A stretch of DNA of 64,000 nucleotides from Actinomycetota bacterium (GTDB lineage Bacteria; Actinomycetota; Coriobacteriia; Anaerosomatales; PHET01): positions 3,315-67,314 of the forward strand of contig JBBIJX010000003.1 in assembly GCA_037445775.1 (NCBI GenBank), written 5' to 3'. The notes beneath the pieces were generated by a model, which had not been told where the DNA came from, ran no database searches, and was given only the letters and a program-made list of their open reading frames with translations. The translations under genes and the position numbers were made by a program. This document shows, in pieces, positions 2,809 to 27,202 of this stretch (the first letter of the stretch is position 1; every line of letters starts with the position of its first letter).

Positions 2809-2812
2809 CGCC

Positions 2813-4215: not shown

Positions 4216-4227
4216 GGGAGCGCGCCG

Positions 4228-5313: not shown

Positions 5314-5392
5314 GCGCGCTGGTCCCCTCGCTGATGTGATGGCGTCGGTGCGATGCATTGTAGCGCAGGGTCCCGCTCGCGCGGCGAGCAGC

Positions 5393-8682: not shown

Positions 8683-8700
8683 CGGACTTCGTCTCCCAAC

Positions 8701-10011: not shown

Positions 10012-11207
10012 GTCCGGCGGACCTCGGAGAGGAAGCTCGTGCCCCGTCCGCACGCGCCGGCGAGCCCGTAGAAGTCGAGCACCGTCTCGCCGATATCTGC
10101 GAAGGTGGAGCGTTCCCCTAGGTCGACGCCGGTATCGACGCCCTTGACGTGCACGATGAGGGGCGTGTACTCGCGGCTGTGGTCCGTCGACGAGGTCGTG
10201 GGGTCACAGCCGTGGTCGGCGGTGATGATGAGCAGGTCGCCATCGCGCATGGCCTCGACAAGCTCGGGCATCCGCGCGTCGACGGCCTCTAGCCCGCGCG
10301 CATAGCCCTCGACGTCGTTGCGGTGTCCCCAGATCATGTCGAAGTCGACGAGGTTCGCGAAGACGAACCCGTTGTCCGCCGTGTCGCGCACCCGGGCGAG
10401 CAGGTTGTCGAAGCCGTGCATGTTGTTCTCCGAGTGCGGCGATTCGCAGATGCCGCGCCACGCGAAGATCTCGCCGATCTTGCCGATGCCGTAGCATCTG
10501 ACGCCCGCGTCACTCAGGCGATCGAGCGCCGTGGGCTCGAACGGCTCGATGGCGAAGTCGCGGCGCCGGTGCGTACGCTGGTAGACACCAGCGGCGTCAG
10601 GGCCGATGAAGGGGCGCGCGATGATCCTGCCCACAGCGTGCTCTCCAACGCACACCTTCGTGCGCGCGATCTCGCAAAGGCGGTAGAGCTCGTCGATAGA
10701 CACGACGTCTTCGTGCGTGGCGATCTGGAATACGCTGTCCGCGCTCGTGTAGACGATGGGTGCGCCGCTGCGTACGTGTTCGCCGCCCAGCTCCTGGATG
10801 ATGACCGTGCCGCTCGCCGGGCGGTTCCCGAGCCAGCCTAGCCCGGTCTCGCGCCTCCACGCCTCCATGACCTCAGGCGGAAAGCCCTCAGGGTAGGTGG
10901 GGAACGGACGGGACAGCTCGAGCCCCATCATCTCCCAGTGCCCCGTCGTAGTGTCCTTACCGGCACTAGCCTCGGCGTTGCGGCCCCACGACGCGACGGG
11001 GGAAGCGACCGGGGGCACACCATCGATGGGCGTCACGTTGCCGAGTCCCATCGCGCCGAGGTTGGGCATCTTGAGACCGCCCGCGGCGCGCGCGGTGTTG
11101 CCAAGCGTGTTCGCCCCCTCATCGCCGTAGAGCGCAGCATCGGGCAGCGCGCCCACGCCCACGCTGTCGAGCACGAGAACGATCGCCCGGGACTCGCGTC
11201 CGTGCAT
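10008..11207 (-). CDS. deoB: Phosphopentomutase
   Basis: IVLVLDSVGVGALPDA...GANTLGN and ITADHGCDPT motifs. Start at ATG 11207. The track N-terminal extension to 11525 is Arg-rich junk overlapping pilB. Confidence 0.9.
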   Translation of the reverse strand: MHGRESRAIVLVLDSVGVGALPDAALYGDEGANTLGNTARAAGGLKMPNLGAMGLGNVTPIDGVPPVASPVASWGRNAEASAGKDTTTGHWEMMGLELSRPFPTYPEGFPPEVMEAWRRETGLGWLGNRPASGTVIIQELGGEHVRSGAPIVYTSADSVFQIATHEDVVSIDELYRLCEIARTKVCVGEHAVGRIIARPFIGPDAAGVYQRTHRRRDFAIEPFEPTALDRLSDAGVRCYGIGKIGEIFAWRGICESPHSENNMHGFDNLLARVRDTADNGFVFANLVDFDMIWGHRNDVEGYARGLEAVDARMPELVEAMRDGDLLIITADHGCDPTTSSTDHSREYTPLIVHVKGVDTGVDLGERSTFADIGETVLDFYGLAGACGRGTSFLSEVRRT

Positions 11208-12874: not shown

Positions 12875-12919
12875 GTGCCCCTCCCCGCGAAGGCTTGAGC
12901 TGACGCGATGTTGCAGAGC

Positions 12920-13204
12920 CTATTCCCGAGAACGCACCATCGAGAGCATCCACTCCGCGAGAACGAGCACACCGATGGTGAGGGCGATATCGACGTTGAA
13001 CACCCCGCCGTACGGCGTCTTGATGGGTTCGACACCGAACGGAACCTTCAGCCATGCTGTGAGCGCGATGACCGCCTCGCCCCAGCCCTGGGCGGCGAGC
13101 GTGCCAAAGAACTGAACGACGAGGCTCGCCGTGAGCCCGATGGCCAGGACGATGAGGATGTCCATGAGCACCGTCAGGACGGTGCGCAGGGGTTTGGATG
13201 TCAC
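12920..13204 (-). CDS. Small integral membrane protein (2-3 TM), weakly YggT-like
   Basis: 94 aa hydrophobic ORF. GTG start preceded by CGGAGG. Codon third-position GC is consistent with coding. The family assignment is only a loose resemblance. Confidence 0.5.
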   Translation of the reverse strand: MTSKPLRTVLTVLMDILIVLAIGLTASLVVQFFGTLAAQGWGEAVIALTAWLKVPFGVEPIKTPYGGVFNVDIALTIGVLVLAEWMLSMVRSRE

Positions 13205-13291
13205 AGGTGGCCTCCGGGAGACAAGGGTCGATGCGTCGATGCGATTATCGACGCCCGAGCCTGTGCGCGCCAGACACCTTGCGCGGCGGCG

Positions 13292-13543
13292 CTATCGGAG
13301 GGCGTCGGAGGCGATACGAGATATGACCTTGTCGGCGAGGTCGTGGCTGTCGATGGGCGCCGTGAGGAGCCGTGTGCACGCCTCGAGAACGCGCTCGGCA
13401 CGTACATCGGGGGCGCTGTGGACCGCCTCGCAGGCCTGCTCGAGAACCTCCGCCGAGACGTCAGCGTGGTGTCCCGAATCCAGACCGTGCTTCTCACGCA
13501 GCTCCTGCATCGCCAGCCTCGCCTGTTCCTCTGAAAGCATCAT
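13292..13543 (-). CDS. Hypothetical small acidic helical protein
   Basis: 83 aa ORF with coding-like third-position GC. No obvious SD and no recognised motif. Confidence 0.4.
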   Translation of the reverse strand: MMLSEEQARLAMQELREKHGLDSGHHADVSAEVLEQACEAVHSAPDVRAERVLEACTRLLTAPIDSHDLADKVISRIASDALR

Positions 13544-13654
13544 GCCGAAGCTATCGGGGCTCGCGCGCGCTACCTTGATGGGTGATCGTCGAATCGCGCA
13601 AGATGCACGTGACCGCGGTCACACCACGGTGCGCGGACAGCGAGAAACGTCCGG

Positions 13655-13691
13655 GAAAAGGGGGAGCCCCAAGGCCGGCACCTTGAGGCTC
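13655..13691 (-). terminator. Candidate intrinsic terminator of the nuo operon
   Basis: Minus strand, ~120 nt after the nuoN stop: GAGCCTCAAGG-TGCCGG-CCTTGGGGCTC (11-bp stem with one G-U pair) followed by CCCCTTTTCC. Confidence 0.45.
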
Positions 13692-13808
13692 AGGGGTAAG
13701 GGGTTGCATTCGCATGCAACTTGCGTCGCAGCGTATCACGCCGCTCACGCACGCACAAGTACCGTTCACCGATTCACGTGCAGGACATCACCGCAGCACA
13801 GGACCGTC

Positions 13809-15371
13809 CTACCTGGTGATAGAGAAGCCCTCGATGACGCGCGTGAGTCCCGTCACGAGCGGCAGGAGTCCGAGTCCGAGCAGCACTGCGGCGAGAGCGA
13901 TCACCCCGGCCTCAGCGGCCCCGCCTCCTGGGGGATGCGGCCTTCCCTCAGGGTTCTGTGAACCCGGGCCGCCGTTCTCTGCGGAGGCGTCACTTGGATA
14001 CGAGGATGGCGACACGGGCTCCGGCCCCTTCTCAAGGAAGAGCGACCTGATAACCGAGCCATAGTAGGCGATCGATACGACCGACGCGGCCACGCCTACG
14101 GCCACGAGAGCCGCGTACCCCGCGGATTGCGATACGAGCCCCCGCTCGGCCGTGGACACTGAGAGCGCGACCGAGGCGCCGAACGCTTGGAACTTGCCCC
14201 AGAAACCGCCGAATGGCGGCAGACCCGCGAGCGAGCACAGCGCACCGGTCACGGCGAGACCGAGCAAGGGCCGCCGTCGCCCGAGACCAGCGAGCCCGGC
14301 AACGGAGCCGTCCCACGCAGGGTGCAGCCGCTCGAACGCGGCGGCCGCACCGAAGACGCAGACCGAGGCAATCGCATACATCGCGAGGTGGAACGATGCT
14401 GCCGACACGCTCAGAGCCGCAACCGCGATGAGCGCGTAGCCCGCCTGCGCGACACCCGCATACCCGAGCATCCGCCTGTACGAGCGCTGCGGGAGGGCGA
14501 CAAGCGAGCCAACGGCCACTGACACAAGCGCGAATGCACCGATCACCACGAGCGCATCGCCTGCAAGTGAGCCTGCCTCGAAGACGCCAGTCTCAGGCGA
14601 GACTAGAGCGAGCACGAACGAGCCGAACGCGACGCCCACCGCGAGCTTCGCCGGACCCGCAAGCACGCCGGCTGCGGCCGGTTCGGCGTGCTCGTAGGCG
14701 TCGGGCGCCCACGAGTGCAGCGGCGCGGCACCGAACTTGAACGCCAGCGCGACGACGATGAGAACCACGGGCACGAGCGCCGGCAACGCGGATCCCGCAC
14801 TTCCGGCGAACGCGAGTGGCACCGAGAGGTCAAGACGGCCGCTGGACGTTCCTGCGAGAATCGAGAGGCCCATGACGAAGACGCCTGTGGCCACGGCGCC
14901 CTGCACGAAGTACTTCATCGCCGCTTCACGGGCGCCGCCGCCCGAGCCGAGGGCGACCAGCGCGTATGCGCACACAGCGACCGTCTCGAGGGCTAGCAGC
15001 AGGAAGAGGATGTCGGCCGCGCTCATCGCGAGGACCGAGCCGACCGCGATCAACGCGACCAGCACCACGCCCTGGCCCGACTCCGCGAATCGCGACCCCC
15101 GGGCGCTGGCCAGCGCCACAGCACACAGCAGCATCACCACACCGGCTACTGGCGAGTACCCGCGCCCCACGTGCAGCACGTCGTACACGACGGCGTGATC
15201 GAAGCTCCACCCGCCCACCAGCGCGACGAGCCCGCCGGCCGCGAGCAGGGCCGATGCCGCCAGGACTCCGGTCTCGCCGGAGCGGGTGGTGAAAGCGTCG
15301 GCTGCGAGCGCGGCGACGGCGCCAACAAGCGCAGGCCCGATGGTCAGCCACAGTAAAGCCTCCGCGGTCAT
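13809..15371 (-). CDS. nuoN: NADH-quinone oxidoreductase subunit N
   Basis: Polytopic antiporter-like subunit, last gene of the operon. Start sits 1 nt after the nuoM stop. Confidence 0.88.
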   Translation of the reverse strand: MTAEALLWLTIGPALVGAVAALAADAFTTRSGETGVLAASALLAAGGLVALVGGWSFDHAVVYDVLHVGRGYSPVAGVVMLLCAVALASARGSRFAESGQGVVLVALIAVGSVLAMSAADILFLLLALETVAVCAYALVALGSGGGAREAAMKYFVQGAVATGVFVMGLSILAGTSSGRLDLSVPLAFAGSAGSALPALVPVVLIVVALAFKFGAAPLHSWAPDAYEHAEPAAAGVLAGPAKLAVGVAFGSFVLALVSPETGVFEAGSLAGDALVVIGAFALVSVAVGSLVALPQRSYRRMLGYAGVAQAGYALIAVAALSVSAASFHLAMYAIASVCVFGAAAAFERLHPAWDGSVAGLAGLGRRRPLLGLAVTGALCSLAGLPPFGGFWGKFQAFGASVALSVSTAERGLVSQSAGYAALVAVGVAASVVSIAYYGSVIRSLFLEKGPEPVSPSSYPSDASAENGGPGSQNPEGRPHPPGGGAAEAGVIALAAVLLGLGLLPLVTGLTRVIEGFSITR

Positions 15372-15372
15372 G

Positions 15373-16833
15373 TCACCGCCCCCCGCCGGTCACGTACGCG
15401 ATGGAGTTGAGGAACGGTTCAAGCGCCACGGTGATGAGGAACGGGGCGACGCCGAGCACCGCGATGCAGACGGCGAAAACCGCCGCAGTCACACGCTCGC
15501 GCAACCCGAGATCACTCACGTCGCTGATCTCCCCTGACGGCCCCTGGACGATGGCGCGCACACCCCTTAGGTTGTACGCCGCGACGAGCACGATGCCCGC
15601 ACCCAGTACTAGCGACCACCAGCCCCAGGCGCGATACGTCTCGATGAACGTCGCGAACTCGCCAGGGAACCCGGATAGCCCGGGCAGTCCCGCAGAGGCG
15701 AGCGAGGCGAACACGAACGCAACAGACCAGATGCGTGCGATGGACCCGAGCCCGCCGAACCGGGAGATCTCCCGCGTATGCGCACGTTCGTAGAGCGCGC
15801 CCACAAGGAAGAAGAGCAGACCTGCGACGAGTCCGTGGCTCACCATAGTAAGGACCGCAGCGCTCAGAGACACGCGTGTCGCGAGTCCAACCGCGACTGC
15901 TGCGAATCCCATGTGGGCTACGGACGAGTACGCAACGAGCCGCTTGAGGTCGGTCTGCACGAACGCACATGCGGCGCCCCAGACTACGCCCACAATGCCG
16001 AGAGCGACGAGTACCGGGCCCGAGCCGGCGAGCGCATCCGGAGCGAAGGGCAGCACGATGCGGATGAGTCCGTAGCCGCCCATCTTCAGCAGCACGCCCG
16101 CCAAGACGATCGATCCTGCAGTAGGCGCCTCTGTGTGGGCGTCGGGTAGCCACGTGTGCACCGGCACGACCGGCAACTTCACGAGCATGCCTGAGGCGAG
16201 CAGCCAGAACAGCAGCGCACCGGCGCCGGGCACCCCGCCGGCAGCGGTGATCACAGCGATCGACGACGAACCGGCGCCCACGAGCACGGCGATGACGCCT
16301 ACCAGCAGCACAGCGCCGCCGGCGAACGTGAAGACGAGGAACTTCGCCGCCGCTGCGCGCGCGTTGCGCGAACCCCATCCGCCGATGAGCAGGTACATGG
16401 GCACGAGCACGGACTCCCAAGCTATGTAGAACAACACGATGTTGTCGGCGAGGAACACACATGCCAGCGCCGCTTGAACCACCAGGAGCAGCGCGACGTG
16501 CGCGCCGCTTCGTCGCGTGACGCTCCACGACGCGGACAGCGCGGCGAGGCCCGTGAGTGCGGTCAGCGCGACGAACGGCAATGCGAGCCCATCGATCGCG
16601 AGCAGACCCGCGGCGGCGCCAGCGCCTCGTCGGCCGGACTCCGCTAGCTCGGCGGAGACCTCGCCGGTGAGCAGGACAGCGACGGCGGCAACCTGCGCGA
16701 GCACGGCGCCAAGCCCGACGAGCCTAGGCCGCCCGCCGCCGCCACGCTCAGCGAACCACGCGATGGGCGCGGCGAGGAGCGGGACGAGGATCAGCGCCCA
16801 GAGCGCTGCGACGGTGACCGCGTTCGCCTCCAT
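15373..16833 (-). CDS. nuoM: NADH-quinone oxidoreductase subunit M
   Basis: Antiporter-like subunit with the WLPDAHTEAPTAGS motif. Start set at ATG 16833 (MEANAVTV), just after the nuoL stop; ATG 16854 is an alternative. The track start at 17028 overlaps nuoL. Confidence 0.88.
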   Translation of the reverse strand: MEANAVTVAALWALILVPLLAAPIAWFAERGGGGRPRLVGLGAVLAQVAAVAVLLTGEVSAELAESGRRGAGAAAGLLAIDGLALPFVALTALTGLAALSASWSVTRRSGAHVALLLVVQAALACVFLADNIVLFYIAWESVLVPMYLLIGGWGSRNARAAAAKFLVFTFAGGAVLLVGVIAVLVGAGSSSIAVITAAGGVPGAGALLFWLLASGMLVKLPVVPVHTWLPDAHTEAPTAGSIVLAGVLLKMGGYGLIRIVLPFAPDALAGSGPVLVALGIVGVVWGAACAFVQTDLKRLVAYSSVAHMGFAAVAVGLATRVSLSAAVLTMVSHGLVAGLLFFLVGALYERAHTREISRFGGLGSIARIWSVAFVFASLASAGLPGLSGFPGEFATFIETYRAWGWWSLVLGAGIVLVAAYNLRGVRAIVQGPSGEISDVSDLGLRERVTAAVFAVCIAVLGVAPFLITVALEPFLNSIAYVTGGGR

Positions 16834-16838
16834 CGCGC

Positions 16839-18704
16839 TCACCGTCCCATCCATGAGATCGCCGCAAGCGCGAGTGCTGCTACCGCGACGATCGTGGCGG
16901 CGTAAGCCTGCGCGTCGCCGGAGTGGAGCCGGCTCAGGCCACGGCCTGCGAGGCTTGCGCCGAGCGCGAGCAGGACCGTGAAGCCGTCTACGATGAGGCG
17001 GTCGCCCGCCGCCCACAGCCCGCGGCACACCGCGACCGCCGGACGGACCACAGCCCGGTCGACGAGCGCATCGTAGTGGTACGCGGCGGCCAGCGTATCA
17101 CCGACCGTACCCAGCCGCCTCCGTGTCGCCGCATCGCCGACCGGGCCACGCGACGCCGTCCACCCGGCAACGCCGCCGATGACCGCAAGCGCGAGCGCAG
17201 CAGCAGAGATCGGCACCGACAGCGGCTCGGCATGCACGGCGAGCACCTCTACGACCGCCCCGTGAACGAGACCAAGCACAGCTGCCGGGAACGCGAGCAC
17301 GACGAGCGGCACCCACATCGTGGCCGACGCCTCGTGCGCGTGGGCGTCGCTGTTCGGCGTACCGAAGAACACGAGACGCGTGACGCGTGCGGCGTAGAAC
17401 GCCGTCACGGCGCTAGCAACAAAGAGTGCGCTACCCGCCACCGGACTCGCATGCCAGACCGACTCGAGCACCGCGTCCTTGCTGAAGAAGCCGGAAAGAG
17501 GCGCGATCCCCGCGAGCGCAAGTGCACCGATGAGCCACGTGCCGAACGTGACCGGCATGACCCGGCGCAACCCGCCCATCTCGTGGACGTCCTGCGTGCC
17601 GACGCTGTGGATCACGCTGCCGGAGCCCAGGAAGAGCATCGCCTTGAAGGCCGCGTGGGTCATGAGGTGGAAGAACGCCGCCCCCCACGCGCCCACACCC
17701 AGAGCGGCGAACATGAAGCCGAGCTGCGAGATAGTCGAGTAGGCGAGGACCTTCTTGATGTCGCGTTGGATCGCCGCGACGAGGGCAGCGCCGAGGGCCG
17801 AGATCACACCTGCCGTGAGCAGAAGCATCTGTGCGTGCGGGGCCGCGTCGAATACCGGCCACAGACGCGCGGTCAGGTAGACGCCGGCCGCGACCATCGT
17901 CGCAGCGTGAATGAGCGCCGAGACCGGCGTCGGCCCCTCCATGGCGTCAGGAAGCCACGCGTGGAGCGGGAACTGCGCGGACTTGCCTATCGCCCCGATG
18001 GCGAGACAGATCGCGGCCGCGCCTACCACGCCGGCGGGCATCGTGTCGACGAAGTCGAGCACGAGCGAAGATACGTCGGTACCGGCCTGCGTGACGAGGA
18101 TCGCGATACCTGCCAAGAGTCCCACGTCGCCAACGCGCGTGGTGAGGAACGCCTTCGTCGCGGCGGCCGCGGCTGATGGCTTGGAGAACCAGAACCCGAT
18201 GAGTAGGTACGAGCACGCGCCCACGAGTTCCCACCCGATGAAGAGCGTAGTCAGAGTGGCTGCGATGACGACGAGGTTCATCGACCCGACGAACAGAGAG
18301 ATCACCGCGAAGTAGCGTGCCCATCCCGGATCGCCATGCAGGTAGCCGATCGAGAAGACGACCACGCACGCCGCAACGACGCCCACGACCAGGAGCATGA
18401 GCGCGGCCAGAGAGTCGACCGCGGTCGAGATGCGCAAGAACCAGTCCTCACCCACCACAAACCACAGTCTCTGAGGCGACGCGGCGGCGGCCGCGCTCGT
18501 TCCGAGCGCAGGATCGAAGGGGTCGCCTGCCGCAGCGATCGCCTGCAGGGAGGCGAGCCCATACGCCACCGTCCCGAGCGGCCCCATGAGCGCGAGCAAC
18601 GGCGCTGCGAGACGCGCCCGCTTCCCCACGAGCGCGATGACAAGGGCGAGAATGCCCGGCACCACGGCGAGGTAGAGAGGGTCGATGCGCAGAAGCCCGC
18701 TCAT
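16839..18704 (-). CDS. nuoL: NADH-quinone oxidoreductase subunit L
   Basis: 621 aa antiporter-like subunit with the WLPDAMEGPTPVSALIHAATMV motif and a C-terminal lateral-helix extension. Confidence 0.9.
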   Translation of the reverse strand: MSGLLRIDPLYLAVVPGILALVIALVGKRARLAAPLLALMGPLGTVAYGLASLQAIAAAGDPFDPALGTSAAAAASPQRLWFVVGEDWFLRISTAVDSLAALMLLVVGVVAACVVVFSIGYLHGDPGWARYFAVISLFVGSMNLVVIAATLTTLFIGWELVGACSYLLIGFWFSKPSAAAAATKAFLTTRVGDVGLLAGIAILVTQAGTDVSSLVLDFVDTMPAGVVGAAAICLAIGAIGKSAQFPLHAWLPDAMEGPTPVSALIHAATMVAAGVYLTARLWPVFDAAPHAQMLLLTAGVISALGAALVAAIQRDIKKVLAYSTISQLGFMFAALGVGAWGAAFFHLMTHAAFKAMLFLGSGSVIHSVGTQDVHEMGGLRRVMPVTFGTWLIGALALAGIAPLSGFFSKDAVLESVWHASPVAGSALFVASAVTAFYAARVTRLVFFGTPNSDAHAHEASATMWVPLVVLAFPAAVLGLVHGAVVEVLAVHAEPLSVPISAAALALAVIGGVAGWTASRGPVGDAATRRRLGTVGDTLAAAYHYDALVDRAVVRPAVAVCRGLWAAGDRLIVDGFTVLLALGASLAGRGLSRLHSGDAQAYAATIVAVAALALAAISWMGR

Positions 18705-18994
18705 CCGCGCACCTGCCGCAACTCGTCGATGCGCGTGGTACGCGCGGTACGGGCGATCGCCACCACAAGCGCCAGGCCGACCGCCGCCCCTGCGGCGGCG
18801 AGCACGATCAGGAGCAACGCGACGGCCTCGACCCTGCTACTGCCGCCCGCCGCCGCTCCGAGGCTCACGAGCAGCAGCAGCGGCGCCGCGATCATCACCT
18901 CGATGCTGGCAAGCACCGCGACGAGGTCGCGCCGCACGAGCACGCCGTAGAGGCCGATGGCGAACAGGGCACCGCTCACCGCGAGTGCGCTCAT
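18701..18994 (-). CDS. nuoK: NADH-quinone oxidoreductase subunit K
   Basis: 97 aa, 3 TM, GLYGVLVRRDLVAVLASIEVM is typical NuoK. 4-bp overlaps on both sides. Confidence 0.9.
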   Translation of the reverse strand: MSALAVSGALFAIGLYGVLVRRDLVAVLASIEVMIAAPLLLLVSLGAAAGGSSRVEAVALLLIVLAAAGAAVGLALVVAIARTARTTRIDELRQVRG

Positions 18995-19476
18995 TCGGCA
19001 TCACCCCGGCTTACCGCCACGACGGCGACGAGTGCCGCGAGCAGAAGCAGCCCAGCGAGTTCGAAGTGCGGCAGCAGGTCTGAGAGCAGCACGCGGCCCA
19101 GCGACGGACCGCCAGCCGCCGACGAATCCGCAGTCACTACGAAGGGCCGGAGCAGCATCACGATCAGGGCCCCCACACCGGCCGCCGATACGAGCGCGAC
19201 CGGGTCGTGACGGGACTGGAGCGACGGCGCGCCGGGAACCTCGCGGTGCACGAGCATGATCGCGAAGAGCATGAGTACGAGGACGCCGCCCACGTAGACG
19301 AAGATCTCGGCGAGGGCGAGAAAACCGAAGCCGAACAGCGCGAAGAAGCCGGCGAGGGCGAGTAGGAACGCGCCGAGACCGAACGCCATGCGCAGCATCT
19401 CTCGCGCCAATACCACCGCGAGCGCACCGGCTACCGCAAGCGCGGAGAGTGACCAGAACAGCACCTGCTCGCTCAC
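18991..19476 (-). CDS. nuoJ: NADH-quinone oxidoreductase subunit J
   Basis: 161 aa hydrophobic protein at the correct operon position, with FVYVGGVLVLMLF. Confidence 0.85.
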   Translation of the reverse strand: MSEQVLFWSLSALAVAGALAVVLAREMLRMAFGLGAFLLALAGFFALFGFGFLALAEIFVYVGGVLVLMLFAIMLVHREVPGAPSLQSRHDPVALVSAAGVGALIVMLLRPFVVTADSSAAGGPSLGRVLLSDLLPHFELAGLLLLAALVAVVAVSRGDAE

Positions 19477-21482
19477 GCCGGACCACCCCCTGTGCGCGTG
19501 GGAGCATCGGCGCCCGTCGCACGCGTCCCGGTCCCGGCGCGCACCATCTCGTGCATGCCGAGAACGGTCAGGTCGCGACGGTAGAAGCTGAGTTCGTACT
19601 GGCCGGTGTGACGCAGCGCGTCAGTGGGGCACTGTTCGGCACACAGGCCGCAGAAGCAGCACTTGGAGAGGTCGAGTTCGTAGCGGGTCACCCGGCGCGC
19701 GCCTGGGTCGTCGATGCGCTCAACCTGGATCGCGTAGTCCGGACAGGCGTGTGCGCAGAACGTGCAACCCACGCACACGCCTGACGAGCACCTCAGACAG
19801 CGAGCGGCCTCGGCGAGCCCCTCCAGGTGCGTGAAGCCCAGCTCGACCGCGCGAAAGTCGCGCGCCCGCTCAGTGCCGTTCGCCAAGGGCATGTGCACGC
19901 GGCGGCGCGACGCCTCGACTCCCGCGAGCGCGGCCCGGGCGTACGACGGGTAGATCGGGACAGGGCGGTACGTGCGGTCCAGCGCGAGGTCCTCGCCATC
20001 GAGGTAGCGCAGGATCGAGATCGCCGCCTCGTGACCGCTAGCGATCGACGCTATGGCCGACCCGGGGCCAGTGACCACTTCACCGCACGCGAACACGCCG
20101 CGCACCTGCGTCGTCATGAGCGCACCGTCCACCGGCAGCATCCCGCGGTCTGTAAGAAGCAGGTCACTGCCGGATACGACGCCGTCGAGCGCGGGCTCCT
20201 GGCCGATGGCGAAGATCACCACGTCGGCGGCCAGGTCTGTGAACTCCTCAGCGAATACCGGAGCGAACCTTCCTTGAGCGTCGAAGACGGAGAGGCAGCT
20301 CTGCAGGCGCATGCCTGCCACGCGGCCGTCCTTCACGAGTACTTCCTTCGGGCCGTAGGAGCAGATCGCGACGACCCCCTCGTCGAGCGCCTCATCGATC
20401 TCCCACGGGTGAGCCGGCAGTTCATCCATCGACTCGAGAGAGGATAGCCTCACCTCGGCGGCACCACAGCGCAGCGCAACGCGGGCGCAGTCCACTGCAA
20501 CGTTGCCGCCACCGATAACGAGCACACTCCTGCCCCTGACGCCGCAATCGGCCTTGCCGTTGCCGGCCTTGAGGAAGTCGAGCGCGCCCCGCACCCCGTC
20601 CGCGTCCGCGCCCGGGATGGGCAGCATCCGGCTCAGCTGCAGCCCCACCGCGATGAGGACTGCGTCGTACTCGCCGATGAGGTGGTCGATGGGCACGTCG
20701 CGCCCGATCTCGACGCCGGCGAACAGGCGCATCCCCATCGCACGCAGGTCGCTGATCTCTGTGTGAAGCACGTCGCGCGGCAGGCGGTACGCGGGGACGC
20801 CGGAGTAGAGCGCGCCACCGGGAACCGCCTCCTTCTCATAGACGTGAACCTCGAAACCGGCCTGCATGAGGTCGAACGCGGCAGCGAGTCCGCTCGGACC
20901 CGATCCGATGATGGCCACCCGCTCTTCGCGGGTGAGCGGCAGCGGCTTGACACGCTCCATGCGATGGGCCGAATAACGCTCGTAGGCAACACGGTGCAAC
21001 GGCCTGATCGCGATCGGTTCGTCGAAGTACTGGCGCTTGCACGCGCTCTCGCAGGGGTGGTGACAGATGCGCCCTAGGACTCCCGGCATGACGTTTCGGG
21101 CGCGCACCAGTTCGTACGCTTCGGCGGCCTTGTCGTCGGCAAGCAGGTACGACTGGCCACGGGCGTCTACGTTCGCCGGGCAGTTGCCCACGCACGGCGG
21201 CAGCTCACCGGACTGGTGCAGCGCGTCGATGTGGCTGTTGTAGGAGACAGCCTCGCGCTCGATGAGCGGGACATCGTCGCGGCCCAGGACCCCGGTCAGA
21301 CGCAACGCTCCACGCCAGCGTGGCGACAGCGTGACCCGTTCGGCGGGATAGCGCAGTGTGTCCGGGCGCTTCGTCGCACGACGGGCGGTGATCCCAAGCC
21401 CGGTCGCCACGCTCAGCCAGCGCTCGGCGAAGCCCTTGATACCGGGTGAGAAATCGTCGGTCACGCTCACCGCGAGCGGCAT
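19473..21482 (-). CDS. nuoI: Chimeric NuoI: NuoI N-terminal segment + GltD-like NAD(P)H/FAD/[4Fe-4S] oxidoreductase module + NuoI 2x[4Fe-4S] ferredoxin core
   Basis: Start at ATG 21482, 47 nt after the nuoH stop; the track ORF extends to 22001 over nuoH. Motifs: KRPDTLRYPAERVTLSPRWRGALRL; CVGNCPANVD...GRICHHPCESACKR; VAIIGSGPSGLAAAFDL; VLVIGGGNVAVDCA; GVFACGEVVTG; CVGCTFCAHACP; CCFCGLCAEQCP. Confidence 0.8.
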   Translation of the reverse strand: MPLAVSVTDDFSPGIKGFAERWLSVATGLGITARRATKRPDTLRYPAERVTLSPRWRGALRLTGVLGRDDVPLIEREAVSYNSHIDALHQSGELPPCVGNCPANVDARGQSYLLADDKAAEAYELVRARNVMPGVLGRICHHPCESACKRQYFDEPIAIRPLHRVAYERYSAHRMERVKPLPLTREERVAIIGSGPSGLAAAFDLMQAGFEVHVYEKEAVPGGALYSGVPAYRLPRDVLHTEISDLRAMGMRLFAGVEIGRDVPIDHLIGEYDAVLIAVGLQLSRMLPIPGADADGVRGALDFLKAGNGKADCGVRGRSVLVIGGGNVAVDCARVALRCGAAEVRLSSLESMDELPAHPWEIDEALDEGVVAICSYGPKEVLVKDGRVAGMRLQSCLSVFDAQGRFAPVFAEEFTDLAADVVIFAIGQEPALDGVVSGSDLLLTDRGMLPVDGALMTTQVRGVFACGEVVTGPGSAIASIASGHEAAISILRYLDGEDLALDRTYRPVPIYPSYARAALAGVEASRRRVHMPLANGTERARDFRAVELGFTHLEGLAEAARCLRCSSGVCVGCTFCAHACPDYAIQVERIDDPGARRVTRYELDLSKCCFCGLCAEQCPTDALRHTGQYELSFYRRDLTVLGMHEMVRAGTGTRATGADAPTRTGGGPA

Positions 21483-21529
21483 GCTGATGGGCGTGCGGTC
21501 GGGCGCTCCGTCCTGATCGCGTCTGCGTG

Positions 21530-22489
21530 TCAGAGCCACGGCAGCACCGCCCCCACGATCACGAGCTGCAGCAAAGCCATGGGTGTGAGCACCTTCCACG
21601 CGAACCCCATGAGCTGGTCCGGCCGCATGCGAGGAAACGTCCACTTCGCCCAGATCATCGCCATCGTGATCACGACCGTGAGCCCCACGAACACAACGCC
21701 CCCGGCGATGCCGGGCAACCCGAGGCCTCCGCCCAGAAACGTCGCCGCCCCGAAGAGCGACGCTGCGACGATGCCCCCGTATTCGGCCATCATGAAGATC
21801 GCCCACCGAATGCCGGAGTACTCCGCGAAGTAGCCCGCCACGAGCTCGGACTCCGCCTCGGGCAGGTCGAACGGGCCGCGGTTGAGCTCCGCGATCGACG
21901 AGATCACGTAGACGGCGAAACCGATCGCGAGCAGCGGGATCCACCACAGCCGCCACTCCTCGCGGATCGTGACCGTGGACAGCGAGCCCGCGAGCAGACA
22001 CAGCGCAAGCACCGAGAGCGTCCGCGGGACCTCATAGGAGACCATCTGCGCCGCAGCACGCACGCCGCCGATCGACGCATAGGAGCTCTTGCTCGACCAC
22101 CCTGCGGCGACGATGCCAAGCACGCTCAGGCCCGGCACGGCGAGAAAGAACAGGGCACCGGTCTCGATGTCGAAAGGCGCCCACCCCGATCCGAATGGGA
22201 TGACGACGAGGGCCGAAGCGCACGGGACGAAGACGAGGTACGGCATGGCGCGGAAGAAGCGTGCATCCGCGTTCGCCGGTGTGATGTCCTCCTTGAGCAC
22301 GAGCTTCACGGTGTCGGCGAGCGTCTGCAACAACCCGAAGGGACCGGCCTGCTGCGGGCCGAAGCGCATCTGCACCCGGCCAGCGATCTTGCGCTCACCC
22401 CACACGCCTATGAGCGCGGCGATGGCGACGAGCAGCGAAGCCCCCAGGCCTGCCAAGGCGCCGTGCGCAAGCGGCGTGAGCCCGCTCAC
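21530..22489 (-). CDS. nuoH: NADH-quinone oxidoreductase subunit H
   Basis: GERKIAGRVQMRFGPQQAGPFGLLQTLADTVKL signature. GTG start at 22489 forms a GTGA overlap with the nuoD stop. The track start at 22798 lies inside nuoD. Confidence 0.9.
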   Translation of the reverse strand: MSGLTPLAHGALAGLGASLLVAIAALIGVWGERKIAGRVQMRFGPQQAGPFGLLQTLADTVKLVLKEDITPANADARFFRAMPYLVFVPCASALVVIPFGSGWAPFDIETGALFFLAVPGLSVLGIVAAGWSSKSSYASIGGVRAAAQMVSYEVPRTLSVLALCLLAGSLSTVTIREEWRLWWIPLLAIGFAVYVISSIAELNRGPFDLPEAESELVAGYFAEYSGIRWAIFMMAEYGGIVAASLFGAATFLGGGLGLPGIAGGVVFVGLTVVITMAMIWAKWTFPRMRPDQLMGFAWKVLTPMALLQLVIVGAVLPWL

Positions 22490-23631
22490 CTGTCGACCTC
22501 GCCGAAGACGGGGTCGAGCGAGCCGAGCACGACCACGAGATCGGAGAGTGTGTGCCCCTCGCACAGCAGAGGCAGCAGCGCGAGATTGCAGAAGGCAGGG
22601 CTGCGCACGTGCATCCGATACGGACGCGGCGACCCGTCGCTCACGAGGTAGACTCCGAGTGACCCGCGCGCGGACTCGATGTGGTCGTATGCCTCGCCCG
22701 GCTCGGGCGCGATGAGACGCGGCAAGCCGTCGGTCCGAAATGCGCCGGCGTGCATCTGCGTGATGGCCTGCTCGATGATGCGGCAGCTCTCGAAACACTC
22801 GTAGAGCTTCACGCGCCCGCGGTCATAGGCGTCACCGTTATCCCCGACCACTACGTCGAAGTCCATGCGCGGGTAGACCGAGTACGGGTCGTTCTTACGA
22901 AGGTCCCACTTCATGCCGCTTGCGCGCGCGACCGGACCCGACGCCCCCCAAGACGCCGCCTCCTCGGCCGACAGGACTCCGATGCCCTTGAGCCGCCCCC
23001 GCGCGATCGTGTTGCCGAAGAAGAGCCGGTCCATCTCGTCGAGGGCCGGCCGCGCCGCCTTGGTGAACGCGAGAACGTCGCCGGTCCACCCTTTCGGCGC
23101 GTCGTACGCCACACCGCCGGGCCTGACGTAGTTGTAGGTCAGCCGCGCCCCGCACAACTCCTCGAACAGCTCGACGATGCGCTCACGCAGGTCGAACGCG
23201 TAGACAAAGAAGGTGAACGCGCCTGTGTCGGCCGCCGATGCTCCGATGCCCATCATGTGGCTCGCGATGCGCTGCAGTTCGCAAACGATGACGCGCAGGT
23301 ACTCGGCGCGCTCGGGAACCGGAATGTTCGCCAAGCGCTCGACCGCGCGGCAGTACGCCCAGTTCGCGTACATGCTACCCACATAGTCGAGACGGTCGGT
23401 CAACGGAACTATCTGCAGGTATGTGCGATTCTCGGCCATCTTCTCGATGCCGCGGTGCAAGTAGCCGATTACCGGCACGGCCTTGACGACCACGTCACCG
23501 TCCAGGTGCACGATCACGCGTCCCACGCCGTGCGTCGACGGGTGTGAGGGGCCGACGTTGACTACGAGCTCCTCGACGGGACGGCCGTCGACAGCCACTG
23601 CGGGGGTCCTCGACTCGATCTCGACGCTCAT
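22486..23631 (-). CDS. nuoD: NADH-quinone oxidoreductase subunit D
   Basis: NVGPSHPSTHGV..., YLHRGIEKMAENRTY, and C-terminal LGSLDPVFGEVDR. It lacks hydrogenase NiFe cysteine motifs. Confidence 0.92.
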   Translation of the reverse strand: MSVEIESRTPAVAVDGRPVEELVVNVGPSHPSTHGVGRVIVHLDGDVVVKAVPVIGYLHRGIEKMAENRTYLQIVPLTDRLDYVGSMYANWAYCRAVERLANIPVPERAEYLRVIVCELQRIASHMMGIGASAADTGAFTFFVYAFDLRERIVELFEELCGARLTYNYVRPGGVAYDAPKGWTGDVLAFTKAARPALDEMDRLFFGNTIARGRLKGIGVLSAEEAASWGASGPVARASGMKWDLRKNDPYSVYPRMDFDVVVGDNGDAYDRGRVKLYECFESCRIIEQAITQMHAGAFRTDGLPRLIAPEPGEAYDHIESARGSLGVYLVSDGSPRPYRMHVRSPAFCNLALLPLLCEGHTLSDLVVVLGSLDPVFGEVDR

Positions 23632-23646
23632 CCGCCCTTCACCTCC

Positions 23647-24117
23647 CTAGATGTAGTCCGGGCGCCTGATCAGCCGCGGTGACGAGTAGTCCTTACGCAG
23701 AGGATGGCCCTCGAAGTCGTCGGGTAGCAGGATGCGCCGCAGGTCCGGGTGACCTTCGAACACGATGCCGAACAAGTCGTAGACCTCGCGCTCCTGCCAG
23801 AGCGCCGCTGGCCACAGCGGCACGAGGCTGTCGATGCGGGCTTCGTCGCGTCCCACGCGGCACTTGACGAAGAGCTTCGTCGAGAGAGAGCGCGAACCGA
23901 CGCGATAGACCACGACGAACTCGTCGACTCGGTCCACCGCGGTCACCATTCCGAGGCGGTCGAAACCGGCATCGCGGAGCTCGCGCATCGTAGTCAGCAG
24001 GTCGCCAGCGTCGATGTTGATGACGGCGTCGCCGAACTCAAGTGAAACCGCGAGACTGAAGTTCGGATTGCGTTCCGCGATGCGTTCGAGCAGTTCGTCA
24101 ACCTCGCGTTGTCTCAC
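23647..24117 (-). CDS. nuoC: NADH-quinone oxidoreductase subunit C
   Basis: 156 aa with WPAALWQEREVYDLFGIVFEGHPDLRRILLPDDFEGHPLRKDY. Confidence 0.88.
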   Translation of the reverse strand: MRQREVDELLERIAERNPNFSLAVSLEFGDAVINIDAGDLLTTMRELRDAGFDRLGMVTAVDRVDEFVVVYRVGSRSLSTKLFVKCRVGRDEARIDSLVPLWPAALWQEREVYDLFGIVFEGHPDLRRILLPDDFEGHPLRKDYSSPRLIRRPDYI

Positions 24118-24665
24118 GCTCCGTCACCGCCCTCGCGCGGGAGCAGAGTGGCGCGCTCACGACGCTTGCCCGGAGCGATCGACTCTGTCTTGACGAGCTC
24201 GCGCAGCTGGACGATCCCGTCTTGGAGCGACTCAGGCCGCGGCGGGCAACCGGCGATGTAGACGTCTACCGGCAGGAACTCGTCGGCGCCGCGCACGACC
24301 GAGTACGTGTCGTAGTAGAAGATGCCGCCCGAGATCGTGCAATTCCCCATCGCGACAACCCATTTCGGGTCGGGCATCTGGTCGTAGAGCCGCTGGACCG
24401 CCGGCTTCATCTTCTCGGTGATCGTGCCCGCGAGGATCATCACGTCGGTGTGCCTGGGGTCGGGACGCGGGAACGTCCCGAGCCTGTCGAAGTCGAACTT
24501 CGAGAACGACGCGGCTATGAGCTCCATCGCGCAACACGCCGTTCCCATGGGAAACGCCCACAGCGACTGACCCCGCGACCAGTTCACGAGCGCGTCGAGG
24601 CTCGTGAGGATGACGCCGCCGGGGCCCGAGTCGAGCGCGGCGCCGATGCGGTCTACGACCGCCAT
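24114..24665 (-). CDS. nuoB: NADH-quinone oxidoreductase subunit B
   Basis: GTACCAMEL...MGNCTISGG...CPPRP are the N2 cluster ligands. Confidence 0.9.
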   Translation of the reverse strand: MAVVDRIGAALDSGPGGVILTSLDALVNWSRGQSLWAFPMGTACCAMELIAASFSKFDFDRLGTFPRPDPRHTDVMILAGTITEKMKPAVQRLYDQMPDPKWVVAMGNCTISGGIFYYDTYSVVRGADEFLPVDVYIAGCPPRPESLQDGIVQLRELVKTESIAPGKRRERATLLPREGGDGA

Positions 24666-25021
24666 TCAAGCGCCCCTTTTCGCCATGCGTACGCGAGGCC
24701 GAGCCCGAGCAGCGCGACGAAGGCGCCCACCGCCACGAGCGCGAACGCGCTGCCGCGCAACTCGGATGCGACGGCGAACAGAAGGATCGCCTCAGCATCG
24801 AAGATCACGAAGAGCATGGCGACCGTCGAGAATCGCATGTGCTGGAGCGACCATGGCGCACCGGCCTGCTCGAGTCCGCACTCGAAGGGTGTCAGCTTCT
24901 CAGGATACGGCCTGTGGGGCGCAAGCAGGCGGTTCGCGATGAAAACGACGCCGATGAAGCCCGCCGCGGCAGCGACCATCCCCACCACGAACAGCAGTCC
25001 CTGCGTCACCGCTCCCGACAT
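24653..25021 (-). CDS. nuoA: NADH-quinone oxidoreductase subunit A
   Basis: Start at ATG 25021 (MSGAVTQGLLFVV...EKLTPFECG), preceded by GGGGAGG. The track start at 25162 runs into the promoter region. Confidence 0.85.
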   Translation of the reverse strand: MSGAVTQGLLFVVGMVAAAAGFIGVVFIANRLLAPHRPYPEKLTPFECGLEQAGAPWSLQHMRFSTVAMLFVIFDAEAILLFAVASELRGSAFALVAVGAFVALLGLGLAYAWRKGALEWRS

Positions 25022-25108
25022 CGCGCCTCCCCGCGGCCGCCTTTCGACCGCCAAAGTCCAGAAGGCGGATCGAACGCGCACGACGCATCGCCAGGACGCG
25101 TCTGCGCA

Positions 25109-25148
25109 AGTGTAGAGAACACCAACTCTTTTGTAAATATTGTTACAA
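25109..25148 (-). promoter_or_regulatory. Candidate nuo promoter with overlapping 18-bp palindrome (Rex-operator-like)
   Basis: Minus strand reads TTTACA (25137-25132), 17 nt spacer, TACACT (25114-25109). TTGTAAATATTGTTACAA at 25131-25148 has perfect TTGTAA/TTACAA arms. This is the only strongly A/T-rich patch between the ABC-F stop and nuoA. Confidence 0.45.
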
Positions 25149-25189
25149 TCTCGCGCGCACATCCGTCACGAACAGCGAAGATGGTGCTG

Positions 25190-27202
25190 TCAATCAGGTG
25201 TGTCGCGCGGGCCAACACTCTCCTCCTCCAGGCGCGCAATCTCCTCCGAAAGCTCTAGCCAAGCGCTTTCGAGACCCGGCAGGCGCCCCTTCAGGTCAGC
25301 GTACTCCCTCATCGCTTCGTCAAACCGGGCGCGATCCGCGTAGAGCTCAGGGGTCGCCATAAGCTCGACGAGCTCATCATGCCGGCTCTGGAAGCGAGTC
25401 AGCTCTTTCTCGACGCCCTCCAACCGCTCCTTGCGTTCACGGGTAGAGCGATACAGGGTGTTTCGAGCCTCGGCCTCAGCGCGCTTCTGCCCCTTCGTCT
25501 TGGGACCTTGGACTGTCTCATCCGAGGGGACCCTGCGGCCGTCGCTGACGACCGGGGCGCTCGGGGCTTCACTCCCCGCGCTCGCGGCGTCTTCCCGTTC
25601 TGCGCGCTTCCACAGATAGTAGTCGTAGTCTCCATCGAACACCGTGACACGGCCGTCAACGACCTCGATGATCTTGTTCGCCACGGCCCGGATGAGATGC
25701 CTGTCATGCGTAATGAGCGCGATCGTTCCCTCGAACCGGTCGAGCGCCTGTTCGAGGACATCGCTCGATGCGATGTCGAGGTGGTTGGTCGGCTCGTCGA
25801 GGCAGAGGAACGGCGCCGGCTTCACGAGCATCTTGGCGAGTGCCAGCCGCCCCTTCTCGCCGCCTGACAACACGCGCACCTGCTTCATGACGTCATCACC
25901 CTCGAATAGGAACGCGCCGAGGAGGCCGCGCACCTCGTTCTGCGTCCAGCCGGGTGCGATCGCGTCGACTTCGGCGAACACGGTGTTGGAGAGCCCGAGC
26001 GTCTGGAGTTGGTGTTGCGCGAAGTACGTCGTCTCGACATGGGCGCCCAGCTCGCGCGTCCCCGCGTCGAGCGGCGATTCGCCCGCTAGCATCCTGAGCA
26101 GGGTGGACTTGCCCGCACCGTTTGGCCCTACCAGGGCCACCTTATCCCCCCGATACAGGTTCAGGTCGAGCCCGTCGTAGACGACCAGCTCACCGTAGGC
26201 CTTGCGCGCGTTGGCAAGCGAGATGACGAGCTCACCCGTTCGCCGAGGCTGAGGGAAGCGGAACTTGACCCGCTTGCGACCCTCGGGCACCTCCACGAGC
26301 TCGGACTTGATCTTCTCGATGCGTTTGACGCGGTCCTGGGCGGCGACCGCCTTCGTGTTCTTGTAGCGAAAGCGGTCGACGAACGCCTGCATGTGAGCGA
26401 TCTCCTTGAGCTGCGCTTCGCGCTGCTTCGCGAGGCGTTCGAGGGTCAGCTCGCGCTGCTGTTCATAGGCCACGTAGTCACCCACGTAGACGGTCACCCG
26501 CTTGTTCTCGATCTCAGCAACCCTGCTCACGAGCCCGTTGATGAATGCGCGATCGTGGCTGACCATGACGATTGCGCCCTCGTAGGAGCGCAGGAACTCC
26601 TCGAGCCACGTGACGCTCTCGAGATCGAGATGGTTCGTGGGCTCGTCGAGCAGGAGGACGTCGGGCCGCGTGAGCAGAAGCTTCGCGAGAGCGAGCCTCA
26701 TCAGCCACCCGCCTGAGAACTCCGAGCCGTCACGCGCTAGATCAGCCTCGCGGAAACCGAGCCCGCCCAGCACTGCGCGCGCTTCGGCTTCGACCGTGTA
26801 GCCGCCCAGGTGTTCGAAGCGCTCCTGCAGGCGCCCGTATTCTGCGAGCAGGCGCTCCTGCTCTTCTCCCGAAGACGAGGAGATTTCGCCTGCGAGCAGG
26901 CGCAGCCGATGTTCGAGCGAGGTCACGTGTTCGGCTGCGGACAGCGCTTCATCGAGCACGGTGCGTCCGGCCATTTCGATGGCCTCCTGCTCGAGGTAGC
27001 CGACGACAGCGTCTCGAGCGAAGCTCACGCACCCTTCGTCAGCGTCCTGCTTGCCGGCGATGATCTCGAGAAGCGTGGTCTTCCCTGCGCCATTGGGTCC
27101 GACGAGGGCGACACGGTCTCGGACGCCAACGCGCAGCGAAGCGTTCGCGAACAGAACGCGCGATCCGAAGGTCTTGGTCACGTTGTCTACGGCGATGATC
27201 AC
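25190..27202 (-). CDS. ABC-F family ATPase (two ABC cassettes, no TMD; Uup/YheS-like with C-terminal coiled coil)
   Basis: Two Walker A sites ([22 protein letters not shown]), two LSGG signatures ([13 protein letters not shown]), a linker between them, and a charged C-terminal helix. Confidence 0.9.

Follow-up and report, generated by a model that had tools for sequence, protein, structure and literature searches.

The gene at the nuoI position

The DNA described here is a 64-kb window (the whole stretch of 64,000 nucleotides, from contig JBBIJX010000003.1 of an Actinomycetota bacterium, to which all coordinates refer), and the subject of this work is the gene that occupies the nuoI position in its operon for a complex I-like enzyme of 11 subunits. 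The product of this gene is a NuoI in which 499 residues interrupt the short loop that leads from RFRGxxxL to the first cysteine of the clusters, and the insert, judged from its alignments, is a circularly permuted GltD/NfnB-type module. The gene and its parts are as follows, with residues numbered throughout in the 669-aa form that begins at ATG 21482.

19473..21539, minus strand: NuoI-GltD chimeric gene, 688 aa from GTG 21539 or 669 aa from ATG 21482
21285..21482, minus strand: NuoI N-terminal segment, residues 1-66, with an amphipathic helix and T42-x2-Y45-P46...R57-G58 (nt 21309-21359); aligns with NDUFS8 26-70 after removal of the insert
19788..21284, minus strand: insert of 499 residues, residues 67-565, permuted GltD/NfnB-type cassette, supported by the excision and re-permutation tests
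20970..21200, minus strand: Fer4_20 domain (PF14691), residues 95-171, with C97, C101, C140, C144, C148 and His163 (nt 20994-20996)
19992..20921, minus strand: FAD and NAD(P)H dinucleotide-binding domains, residues 188-497, from Pyr_redox_2 and invariant motifs
19788..19880, minus strand: permuted 'N-terminal' GltD piece, residues 535-565, RDFRAVELGFTHLEGLAEAARCLRC, with C562 and C565; aligns with Thermotoga maritima NfnB 5-52
19533..19787, minus strand: NuoI 2x[4Fe-4S] core, residues 566-650; matches NDUFS8, Nqo9 and NuoI in solved structures

Between 19473 and 21482 there is a single uninterrupted open reading frame (ORF) on the minus strand, and a plus-strand reading of the same interval was ruled out, its frame being full of stop codons. 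An earlier note on this DNA had claimed one uninterrupted ORF of 669 codons at the nuoI position. The open frame, its place between nuoH and nuoJ and its overlap with the nuoJ start (the TGA of the fusion gene overlaps the GTG of nuoJ as GTGA) are all as claimed, but the strand is minus and the start is probably GTG 21539 rather than ATG 21482. A start at this GTG would overlap nuoH by 10 nt. It is preferred because the peptide PDRTPxS[V/M], which lies upstream of ATG 21482, is kept in homologues and because the syntenic gene in OW818687.1 (locus L087), a 2.5-Mb chromosome of a metagenome-assembled genome (MAG), is likewise called with an overlap of 10 nt with nuoH. The motifs that had been quoted in the earlier note are all found in the 669-aa translation, and in the same order: YPAERV...RWRGALRL at 45-62, PPCVGNCP at 95, CHHPCESAC at 140, VAIIGSGPSG at 189, VLVIGGGNVAVD at 320, RLSSLES at 345, GVFACGEVV at 462, CVGCTFCAHACP at 570 and CCFCGLCAEQCP at 608.

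The N-terminal segment and the cluster core of NuoI are 499 residues apart in the native protein and become contiguous on NDUFS8 only after the insert is excised in silico. The NuoI model TIGR01971 matches the native protein in two stretches with 89.6 bits (cutoff 113.05), which together with the N-terminal signature and the cluster motifs agrees with the expectation that NuoI parts stand at both ends. When residues 67-565 were deleted, the resulting construct of 170 aa aligned with NDUFS8 26-148 in one stretch, with a lone one-residue gap at the junction, and the score was 88.8 bits (E 3e-24) as compared to 67 bits for the C-terminal half alone. The same construct matched TIGR01971 in one stretch, over profile positions 1-114 of 121, with 113.3 bits, which is just above the cutoff. 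It is because the excised construct gives this continuous alignment and reaches the TIGR01971 cutoff that the protein is described here as a NuoI with an insertion in a loop. The core matches solved NuoI-type structures with E of about 1e-17 by itself and 3e-24 when joined to the N-terminal segment. Its first motif is C570/C573/C576/C580-P581 (nt 19740-19775) and its second is C608/C611/C614/C618-P619 (nt 19626-19661), and in an alignment of 16 fusion proteins, which are as little as 34% identical, the residues T42, Y45, P46, R57 and G58 of the N-terminal signature are invariant. An extra cysteine, C609 (nt 19656-19658), stands beside the first cysteine of the second motif, which reads KCCFCGLC as compared to the canonical KCIFCGLC; the Coriobacteriia clade keeps this cysteine, whereas among distant members it is not conserved.

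The middle of the protein had been assigned to the GltD, NfnB and dihydropyrimidine dehydrogenase (DPD) type, and this identity is borne out by Pfam matches above threshold and by matches to GltD-type NCBIfam models. Fer4_20 (PF14691) scored 59.1 bits (cutoff 25.8), with only profile positions 30-109 covered, and Pyr_redox_2 (PF07992) scored 99 bits (cutoff 26.1) over residues 188-483; a Fer4_7 dicluster domain was matched at residues 570-622. The FAD motif GSGPSG is at 193-198 (nt 20889-20906) and the NAD(P)H motif GGGNVAVD is at 324-331 (nt 20490-20513). The best NCBIfam match was NF009410 (PRK12771), with 438.5 bits over residues 87-624, which is below its cutoff of 516, and the native protein was also below the cutoffs of gltA TIGR01316 (264 bits, cutoff 471.75), GltD TIGR01317 (193 bits, cutoff 447.7) and TIGR01318 (198 bits, cutoff 482.95). 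The best relatives of solved structure found by sequence were NfnA of the Caldicellulosiruptor NfnABC (9bov_A) and StnC (8oh5_C, 96-624), followed by NfnB/NfnL, GltD and DPD. A Foldseek search with an AlphaFold2 (AF2) model of the fusion protein (pLDDT 80.6, pTM 0.78) gave NfnA of NfnABC, StnC, NfnL, GltD and DPD as top matches, in the same ranking as the sequence search.

The insert is not a canonical GltD that was simply inserted. The Cys region quoted in the earlier note as holding two clusters has only five cysteines, 97, 101, 140, 144 and 148, and the Fer4_20 match enters the profile at position 30. What is missing is the start of the domain, a helix followed by CxxC with the canonical form dF.EV.lGyt..A..EA.RCLxC, and it is found after the flavin domains, at residues 535-565. 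Residues from about 528 to 574 align with T. maritima NfnB 5-52 (E 1.7e-7), and the predicted helix at 552-562 has a pLDDT of about 88 in the AF2 model. Simple insertion of a canonical GltD was therefore ruled out by these three features together, and the claim of a two-cluster Cys region stands as to the Fer4_20 region and its motifs but not as to its completeness, the remaining two cysteines, C562 and C565, being about 460 residues downstream through the permutation. The RCLRC at 561-565 ends four residues before the first N6a cysteine, C570.

A re-permuted construct, made of residues 520-565, a linker of two residues and residues 95-500, aligned with NfnB 5-462 in a single stretch with 269 bits as compared to 241 bits in the native order, and it scored 279, 208 and 217 bits against TIGR01316, TIGR01317 and TIGR01318, respectively, which is still below the cutoffs. 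StnC and NfnA, on the other hand, broke into two pieces (101-500 and 527-567) against the re-permuted construct, and because both of them split in this way they share the permuted order of the window protein; in the native order the protein is collinear with StnC 96-624 and with 9bov_A 96-624. The permutation itself is not mentioned in the Csac NfnABC structure paper, as far as a word search of it reaches, nor in those passages of the StnC paper on which we draw. Through the permutation the two chain ends of the cassette meet at its distal cluster, which explains how a different Fe-S protein can harbour the cassette as a loop; in this sense the cassette is portable.

Operon context and conservation

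The operon comprises 11 genes, nuoA-B-C-D-H-I*-J-K-L-M-N, where I* is the fusion gene, and NCBIfam or Pfam matches were obtained for every subunit.

13809..25021, minus strand: nuo operon
24653-25021, minus strand: nuoA
24114-24665, minus strand: nuoB
23647-24117, minus strand: nuoC
22486-23631, minus strand: nuoD
21530-22489, minus strand: nuoH, stop codon at 21530-21532
19473-21539, minus strand: nuoI* fusion gene
18991-19476, minus strand: nuoJ
18701-18994, minus strand: nuoK
16839-18704, minus strand: nuoL
15373-16842, minus strand: nuoM
13809-15371, minus strand: nuoN

At most junctions of the operon the stop codon of one gene runs into the start codon of the next, as GTGA or ATGA, a pattern typical of a translationally coupled operon. 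NuoD matches the 49-kDa subunits of complex I with E 1e-101, as compared to 2e-66 for MBS, 1e-56 for MBH and 3e-41 for FHL, and it keeps GPSHPSTHG and DRLDYV, whose His and Tyr we take to be those of the quinone site. NuoB keeps the CC...C...CP set of cysteines for N2. By these sequence features the remainder of the enzyme is a genuine complex I of the quinone type. The earlier note had stated that the operon has no nuoE, nuoF or nuoG, and with probes from related loci no sequence like these genes was found in the operon or elsewhere in the 64-kb window.

All 124 proteins that were retrieved with the window protein share its architecture, and the 120 listed matches are 67-100% identical to it; altogether the fusion is kept in more than 150 homologues from Coriobacteriia and other Actinomycetota. 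The closest relatives are labelled as Coriobacteriia MAGs, and the named carriers are Coriobacteriia, other Actinomycetota and one Firmicutes MAG. The annotations of the homologues say only 'FAD-dependent oxidoreductase' or 'glutamate synthase beta subunit-like'. This conservation bears on the question of whether an assembly error, a frameshift or a faulty gene call could have joined a GltD-like gene to fragments of nuoI, for which the unusual length of the ORF, and nothing else, could be adduced. The same order and the same junctions are kept in the 124 proteins and in families down to 34% identity, from independent NCBI, JGI, ENA and Logan assemblies that include contigs of 1.4-2.5 Mb, and the junction residues C562, C565 and C570 are invariant. 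Misassembly and frameshift were rejected on account of the 124 relatives and the distant families, and we regard an artefact of any of these kinds as having next to no probability.

Relatives of the cassette number 23,312 among 1.84 billion representatives, and the NuoI N-terminal segment was present in about a dozen 50%-identity clusters among the best 150 of these 23,312 matches. Most of the other relatives are a free cassette with its dicluster domain, or the cassette is fused to MvhD, to HdrA-like or to molybdopterin domains. In all 13 loci where the protein bears the NuoI N-terminal segment, the fusion takes the place of nuoI: nuoH comes immediately before it and, on contigs that are long enough, nuoJ comes next, whereas nuo neighbours were found at none of 73 loci of the free cassette. 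A scan of contigs with a generic cassette motif gave at least 7 fusion loci among the 80 loci listed. The related loci are syntenic with the window, and no E/F/G-like genes were found in 12 of the 13 related operon loci. The earlier note had raised the question of whether the insertion is conserved in relatives and occurs together with nuo operons lacking E, F and G; it is conserved, and all but one of the 13 loci agree with the second point.

The exception is L086 (72-4944), an operon of the NADPH-type with the window's splice point (type A), where a NuoE-like gene with a 2Fe-2S thioredoxin fold and a gene for a protein of 1389 aa lie directly upstream of nuoA. The protein of 1389 aa has a NuoG-like N-terminus, a GltD cassette and a molybdopterin/formate-dehydrogenase-like part, so that the locus holds two GltD cassettes. 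The operons L085 (13196-21522) and L009 (about 8100-15400), which belong to a distant NADPH-type clade, have five Proton_antipo_M subunits instead of three and also encode a protein of 107 aa that has no Pfam match.

In a second family (type B) the permuted GltD cassette separates the first CxxCxxCxxxCP motif of NuoI from the second, and the gene likewise takes the place of nuoI in a nuoABCDH-I*-JK... operon, as in L084 10001-11902 (P0237). This family has at least 69 members, among P0275-P0393, labelled Chloroflexota, Dehalococcoidales or Dehalococcoidia, and these have mostly the NADPH-type YRR signature and a Lys ligand. The type B nuo operon of L084 has a full rnf operon (207-6225; rnfC, D, G, E, A, B and apbE) as its divergent neighbour. 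That one host protein, NuoI, carries the cassette at two distinct splice points argues for selection on this arrangement.

Predicted cofactors and electron path

All 15 predicted ligand cysteines are invariant in the alignment of the 16 fusion proteins, and so are both dinucleotide motifs and the N-terminal signature of NuoI. Two [4Fe-4S] clusters are expected in the cassette, which would bind FAD and NAD(P)H. Its ligands were mapped from the DPD assignment, which we take to be Cys79/82/87/140 for nFeS1 and Cys91/130/136 with Gln156 for nFeS2, and those of NuoI follow the Nqo9 pattern; the assignments, all by homology, are these.

Distal cassette cluster: predicted ligands C562, C565, C97 and C148
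Proximal cassette cluster: predicted ligands C101, C140, C144 and His163
N6a: predicted ligands C570, C573, C576 and C618
N6b: predicted ligands C580, C608, C611 and C614

In the alignments the counterparts of residue 163 are the Glu ligand in NfnB and Lys170 in StnC; among the type A proteins 130 have His there and 30 have Lys. One ligand of the proximal cluster is probably His163. A Glu ligand at position -4 of PPC was ruled out for want of conservation there.

After the second Rossmann strand the window protein has SSLES (347-351, nt 20430-20444), which includes Glu350. The earlier note had read RLSSLES in place of an Arg-rich 2'-phosphate site, and this is correct: it begins at 345, and S348-L349-E350-S351 stand where NfnB has YRRT and where the NADPH-type members of the family have Y-R-R-S/T. 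A count by regular expression in the type A proteins gave 102 with 'LE' and 32 with 'RR', while type B has mostly 'RR'. As a general rule, an acidic residue that follows this strand of a Rossmann fold points to NAD(H). Because Leu349-Glu350 replace the Arg-Arg of the NADPH-type members, the donor in the Coriobacteriia clade of the window is probably NADH, and in the Arg-Arg clades it is probably NADPH.

The most likely function of the complex would be that of a self-contained NAD(P)H:quinone oxidoreductase. The cassette would sit as a loop between the N-terminal segment of NuoI and the first N6a cysteine, and it would replace NuoEFG as the electron-input module. NAD(P)H would give hydride to FAD, from which electrons would pass to the proximal [4Fe-4S] cluster (C101, C140, C144, His163), then to the distal [4Fe-4S] cluster (C97, C148, C562, C565), and from there to N6a and N6b. 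From N6b they would go to N2 in NuoB and to quinone at the NuoD/NuoH site, and NuoL, NuoM and NuoN would pump protons. N6a normally takes electrons from NuoG, and the spacing of four residues between C565 and C570 puts the distal cluster beside N6a in the sequence. The sequences show the architecture, the permutation, the conservation of ligands, the operon context and the homology to characterised input modules, whereas it is inference which residues ligate which cluster, how far apart the clusters lie, which nucleotide is preferred, which way the electrons flow and that the protein assembles into the complex. A precedent for the path through the cassette is StnC, for which cryo-electron microscopy and mutagenesis have shown a linear transfer by the topologically identical cassette from NADPH/FAD by way of its two clusters to the following cluster of the host scaffold (C7, C6, C5 and onward), with a cassette FAD that is non-bifurcating (PMC10482914).

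We consider it fairly probable, as the excision test, the homology to GltD/NfnB, the invariant ligands, the nuo-only context and the StnC precedent together suggest, that the NuoI of an 11-subunit quinone-reducing complex I-like enzyme here carries a spliced-in NAD(P)H-dehydrogenase cassette in place of NuoEFG. The earlier note had proposed much the same, namely a pyridine-nucleotide-oxidising Fe-S flavoprotein built into NuoI that feeds N6a and N6b in an operon without nuoEFG, and the same evidence supports it. Several points weigh against this proposal. The native protein is below the curated cutoffs of both TIGR01971 and PRK12771, and the region of the NuoI N-terminal signature (residues 38-56) is of low confidence in the AF2 model of the monomer. 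The absence of nuoEFG and of a second nuoI applies to the 64-kb window and not to the whole genome, and the preference for NADH would follow from a general rule for Rossmann folds rather than from a characterised NADH-specific homologue.

That the search for nuoEFG reached the 64-kb window only is also what leaves room for an insert that is accessory or regulatory, with a separate NuoEFG or a ferredoxin still donating to the complex. A ferredoxin donor is the published proposal for the complex I of cultured Anaerosomatales, which are of the same class, Coriobacteriia, and that report mentions no NuoI fusion (PMC9686372). The L086 operon, with its NuoE-like gene and its NuoG/GltD/molybdopterin gene just upstream, would also fit a separate donor. 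However, the loop that the insert occupies is beside N6a, where NuoG or a ferredoxin would deliver electrons, and the invariance of every cofactor ligand across deep divergence argues for a catalytic role. Moreover, 12 of the 13 related operon loci are without E/F/G-like genes, and NuoEFG has been reported to be absent genome-wide from the two cultured Anaerosomatales (PMC9686372), although the supplement of that report has no NuoI annotation that would link the two strains to the fusion. An accessory role for the insert is therefore rated as improbable.

The cassette is homologous to NfnB/NfnL, whose FAD bifurcates, and the Arg of YRLP, implicated in NfnB, is present and conserved in it. One could thus suppose that its flavin bifurcates or confurcates and that NAD(P)H, ferredoxin and quinone are coupled in a proton-pumping scaffold, a 'bifurcating complex I', for which an unlinked partner could still dock. 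Several observations speak against this. A single Fe-S exit path is encoded, and neither a [2Fe-2S] nor an NfnS/NfnA-like partner is present in the 13 operons. The ligand of the proximal cluster is His or Lys, as in the non-bifurcating StnC, instead of the Glu of NfnB, and the Arg of YRLP is found in StnC as well. The topologically identical cassette of StnC has been shown to be non-bifurcating (PMC10482914). Bifurcation appears to us even less probable than an accessory role, and a linear transfer through the cassette is preferred.

The same chain of cofactors could also run in reverse, such that proton-motive force drives the reduction of NAD(P)+ by quinol and supplies NAD(P)H in anaerobes whose quinone is reduced with H2 or formate. 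Complex I is in general reversible, and the NADPH-type Arg-Arg signature, which many members of the family have, would suit a biosynthetic supply of NADPH. The H+-pyrophosphatase encoded in the window could add to the proton-motive force. Parvivirga hydrogeniphila, of the same class, is named for its use of hydrogen, and complexes II and III have been reported to be absent from it (PMC9686372). The clade of the window, however, carries the NADH-type signature; the sequence sets no direction, and the step from menaquinol to NAD+ is strongly uphill. Reverse flow is the least unlikely of the alternatives considered here, but we would still regard it as unlikely, and oxidation of NAD(P)H with reduction of quinone is retained as the preferred direction.

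Relation to known systems and significance

Compared to canonical NuoI (Nqo9, NDUFS8 or TYKY of the 14-subunit complex I), the window protein has the same amphipathic helix, the YPxE...RFRG signature, the two CxxCxxCxxxCP motifs, the NuoI-specific C-terminal tail and the position between nuoH and nuoJ. It differs in the 499 extra residues in a loop of about 15 residues before the first cluster motif and in an operon without NuoE, NuoF and NuoG as partners. With StnC of the StnABC transhydrogenase (8oh5) and NfnA of the Bfu-type NfnABC (9bov, 9n5u) it shares the permuted cassette followed by a [4Fe-4S] ferredoxin-like domain. In these two proteins, however, the scaffold that houses the cassette is soluble and NuoG/HydA-like, and the electrons go to a HydBC-like module that bifurcates, whereas in the window it is in the NuoI of a membrane complex. 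StnC has Lys as proximal ligand, and both enzymes use NADPH, whereas the window protein has a predicted His ligand and the NADH-type signature.

Like NfnB/NfnL, GltD and the N-terminal region of DPD, the cassette has Fer4_20 and two dinucleotide domains, for FAD and two [4Fe-4S] clusters with one non-Cys ligand. Those proteins are collinear with their CxxC at the N-terminus, whereas in the window protein the first 45 residues or so (NfnB numbering) come after the flavin domains and Leu-Glu replaces the Arg-Arg 2'-phosphate site. The order of cassette and dicluster is also that of NF009410 (PRK12771), an 'NAD(P)-binding protein', but the free forms of this type are without the NuoI N-terminal segment and the NuoI-type C-terminus.

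The complex as a whole resembles other 11-subunit enzymes, that is, the cyanobacterial NDH-1 with ferredoxin, Fpo with FpoF, and the Nuo11 of Desulfitobacterium, Dehalococcoides and Anaerosomatales, in having the nuoABCDHIJKLMN core and a quinone-type NuoD without an N-module. It is unlike them in that the input module is covalently part of NuoI and is unrelated to FpoF and NuoF. The nearest functional analogue is FpoF, a single FAD/Fe-S input protein.

In 2015 Degli Esposti noted a related arrangement, in that in Thermotoga and certain proteobacteria the Mbx-like operons have 'NuoI ... substituted by a gltD-related flavoprotein' (PMC4758237). In Mbx-like complexes, which do not use quinone, the membrane arm is of the Mrp type and the NuoD homologues resemble hydrogenases, and reduction of NAD(P)+ has been proposed for them (PMC4758237). 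The likeness, which is by description only, is that a GltD-type NAD(P)(H) module is at the NuoI-equivalent position of a complex I relative. Membership of the window operon in the Mbx type was ruled out by its complex I-type NuoD and by NuoA, H, J, K, L, M and N. In the NCBIfam model NF010590 (PRK13984) a collinear GltD (157-609) comes after a NuoI-like dicluster (22-114), a third and tandem way of joining the two; this family may be the Mbx-like flavoprotein of the literature. The earlier note knew of no described complex I with this architecture. For Nuo-type complexes this agrees with the full-text literature (most subscription journals lying outside it), where no description of a NuoI-GltD/NfnB fusion was found, but the 2015 remark on Mbx-like, non-Nuo operons qualifies the claim. 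All the parts belong to known families; it is the combination, the permuted-loop topology in NuoI and the implied replacement of the N-module that appear to be undescribed.

Upstream of nuoA, between the ABC-F gene (which ends at 25190) and the nuoA ATG at 25021, there is a promoter-like site that overlaps a palindrome.

25109..25148, minus strand: candidate nuo promoter TTTACA-17-TACACT, the only promoter-like site in 24900-25300
25131-25148, minus strand: 18-bp palindrome TTGTAACAATATTTACAA, which lies over the -35 hexamer and some 110 nt upstream of the ATG of nuoA

The palindrome is the sole TTGT-N10-ACAA site in the 64-kb window (0.13 expected), and it is found upstream of nuoA in six of seven loci of the Coriobacteriia clade (L001, L002, L004, L005, L006 and L087). 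We take it, also written as TTGTAACAAnnTTTACAA upstream of nuoA, to resemble operators of the Rex or CRP/FNR type. In the nuoA leader of about 110 nt, between the promoter-like site and the Shine-Dalgarno sequence GGGGAGG, an inverted repeat CCGCCTT...AAGGCGG at about 25025-25075 (minus strand) could form a leader hairpin.

The window has a G+C content of 66.8%, and all its annotated genes (1-64000) are on the minus strand. Outside the nuo operon they are of the housekeeping kind: lepA, dnaJ, hrcA, era, recO, glyQS, PPDK, H+-pyrophosphatase, dnaG, rpoD, an ABC-F ATPase, trpS and scpAB. The gene for the membrane H+-pyrophosphatase is at 35834-38104 and PPDK with its regulator is at 39561-43185, both on the minus strand.

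With the current annotations, metabolic reconstructions miss both NuoI and the NAD(P)H link in the organisms that carry this gene. The family offers a minimal 11-subunit complex I, NADH- or NADPH-dependent, for structural and engineering work. The permutation explains why the cassette is portable, since as a loop it has been plugged into unrelated Fe-S scaffolds, NuoG-like ones in Stn and NfnABC and NuoI here. The fusion suggests that complex I is able to take a different input module, an FAD-based one of the GltD/NfnB type that is unrelated to the FMN protein NuoF and would be wired straight into N6a, and this solution has seemingly been reached at two splice points. What donates electrons to the 11-subunit complex I was called an open question both in 2011 and in 2024. 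In the lineages considered here, the type A Actinomycetota and the type B Chloroflexota, the donor module would be written in the NuoI gene itself, and for them the question of the donor becomes directly testable.

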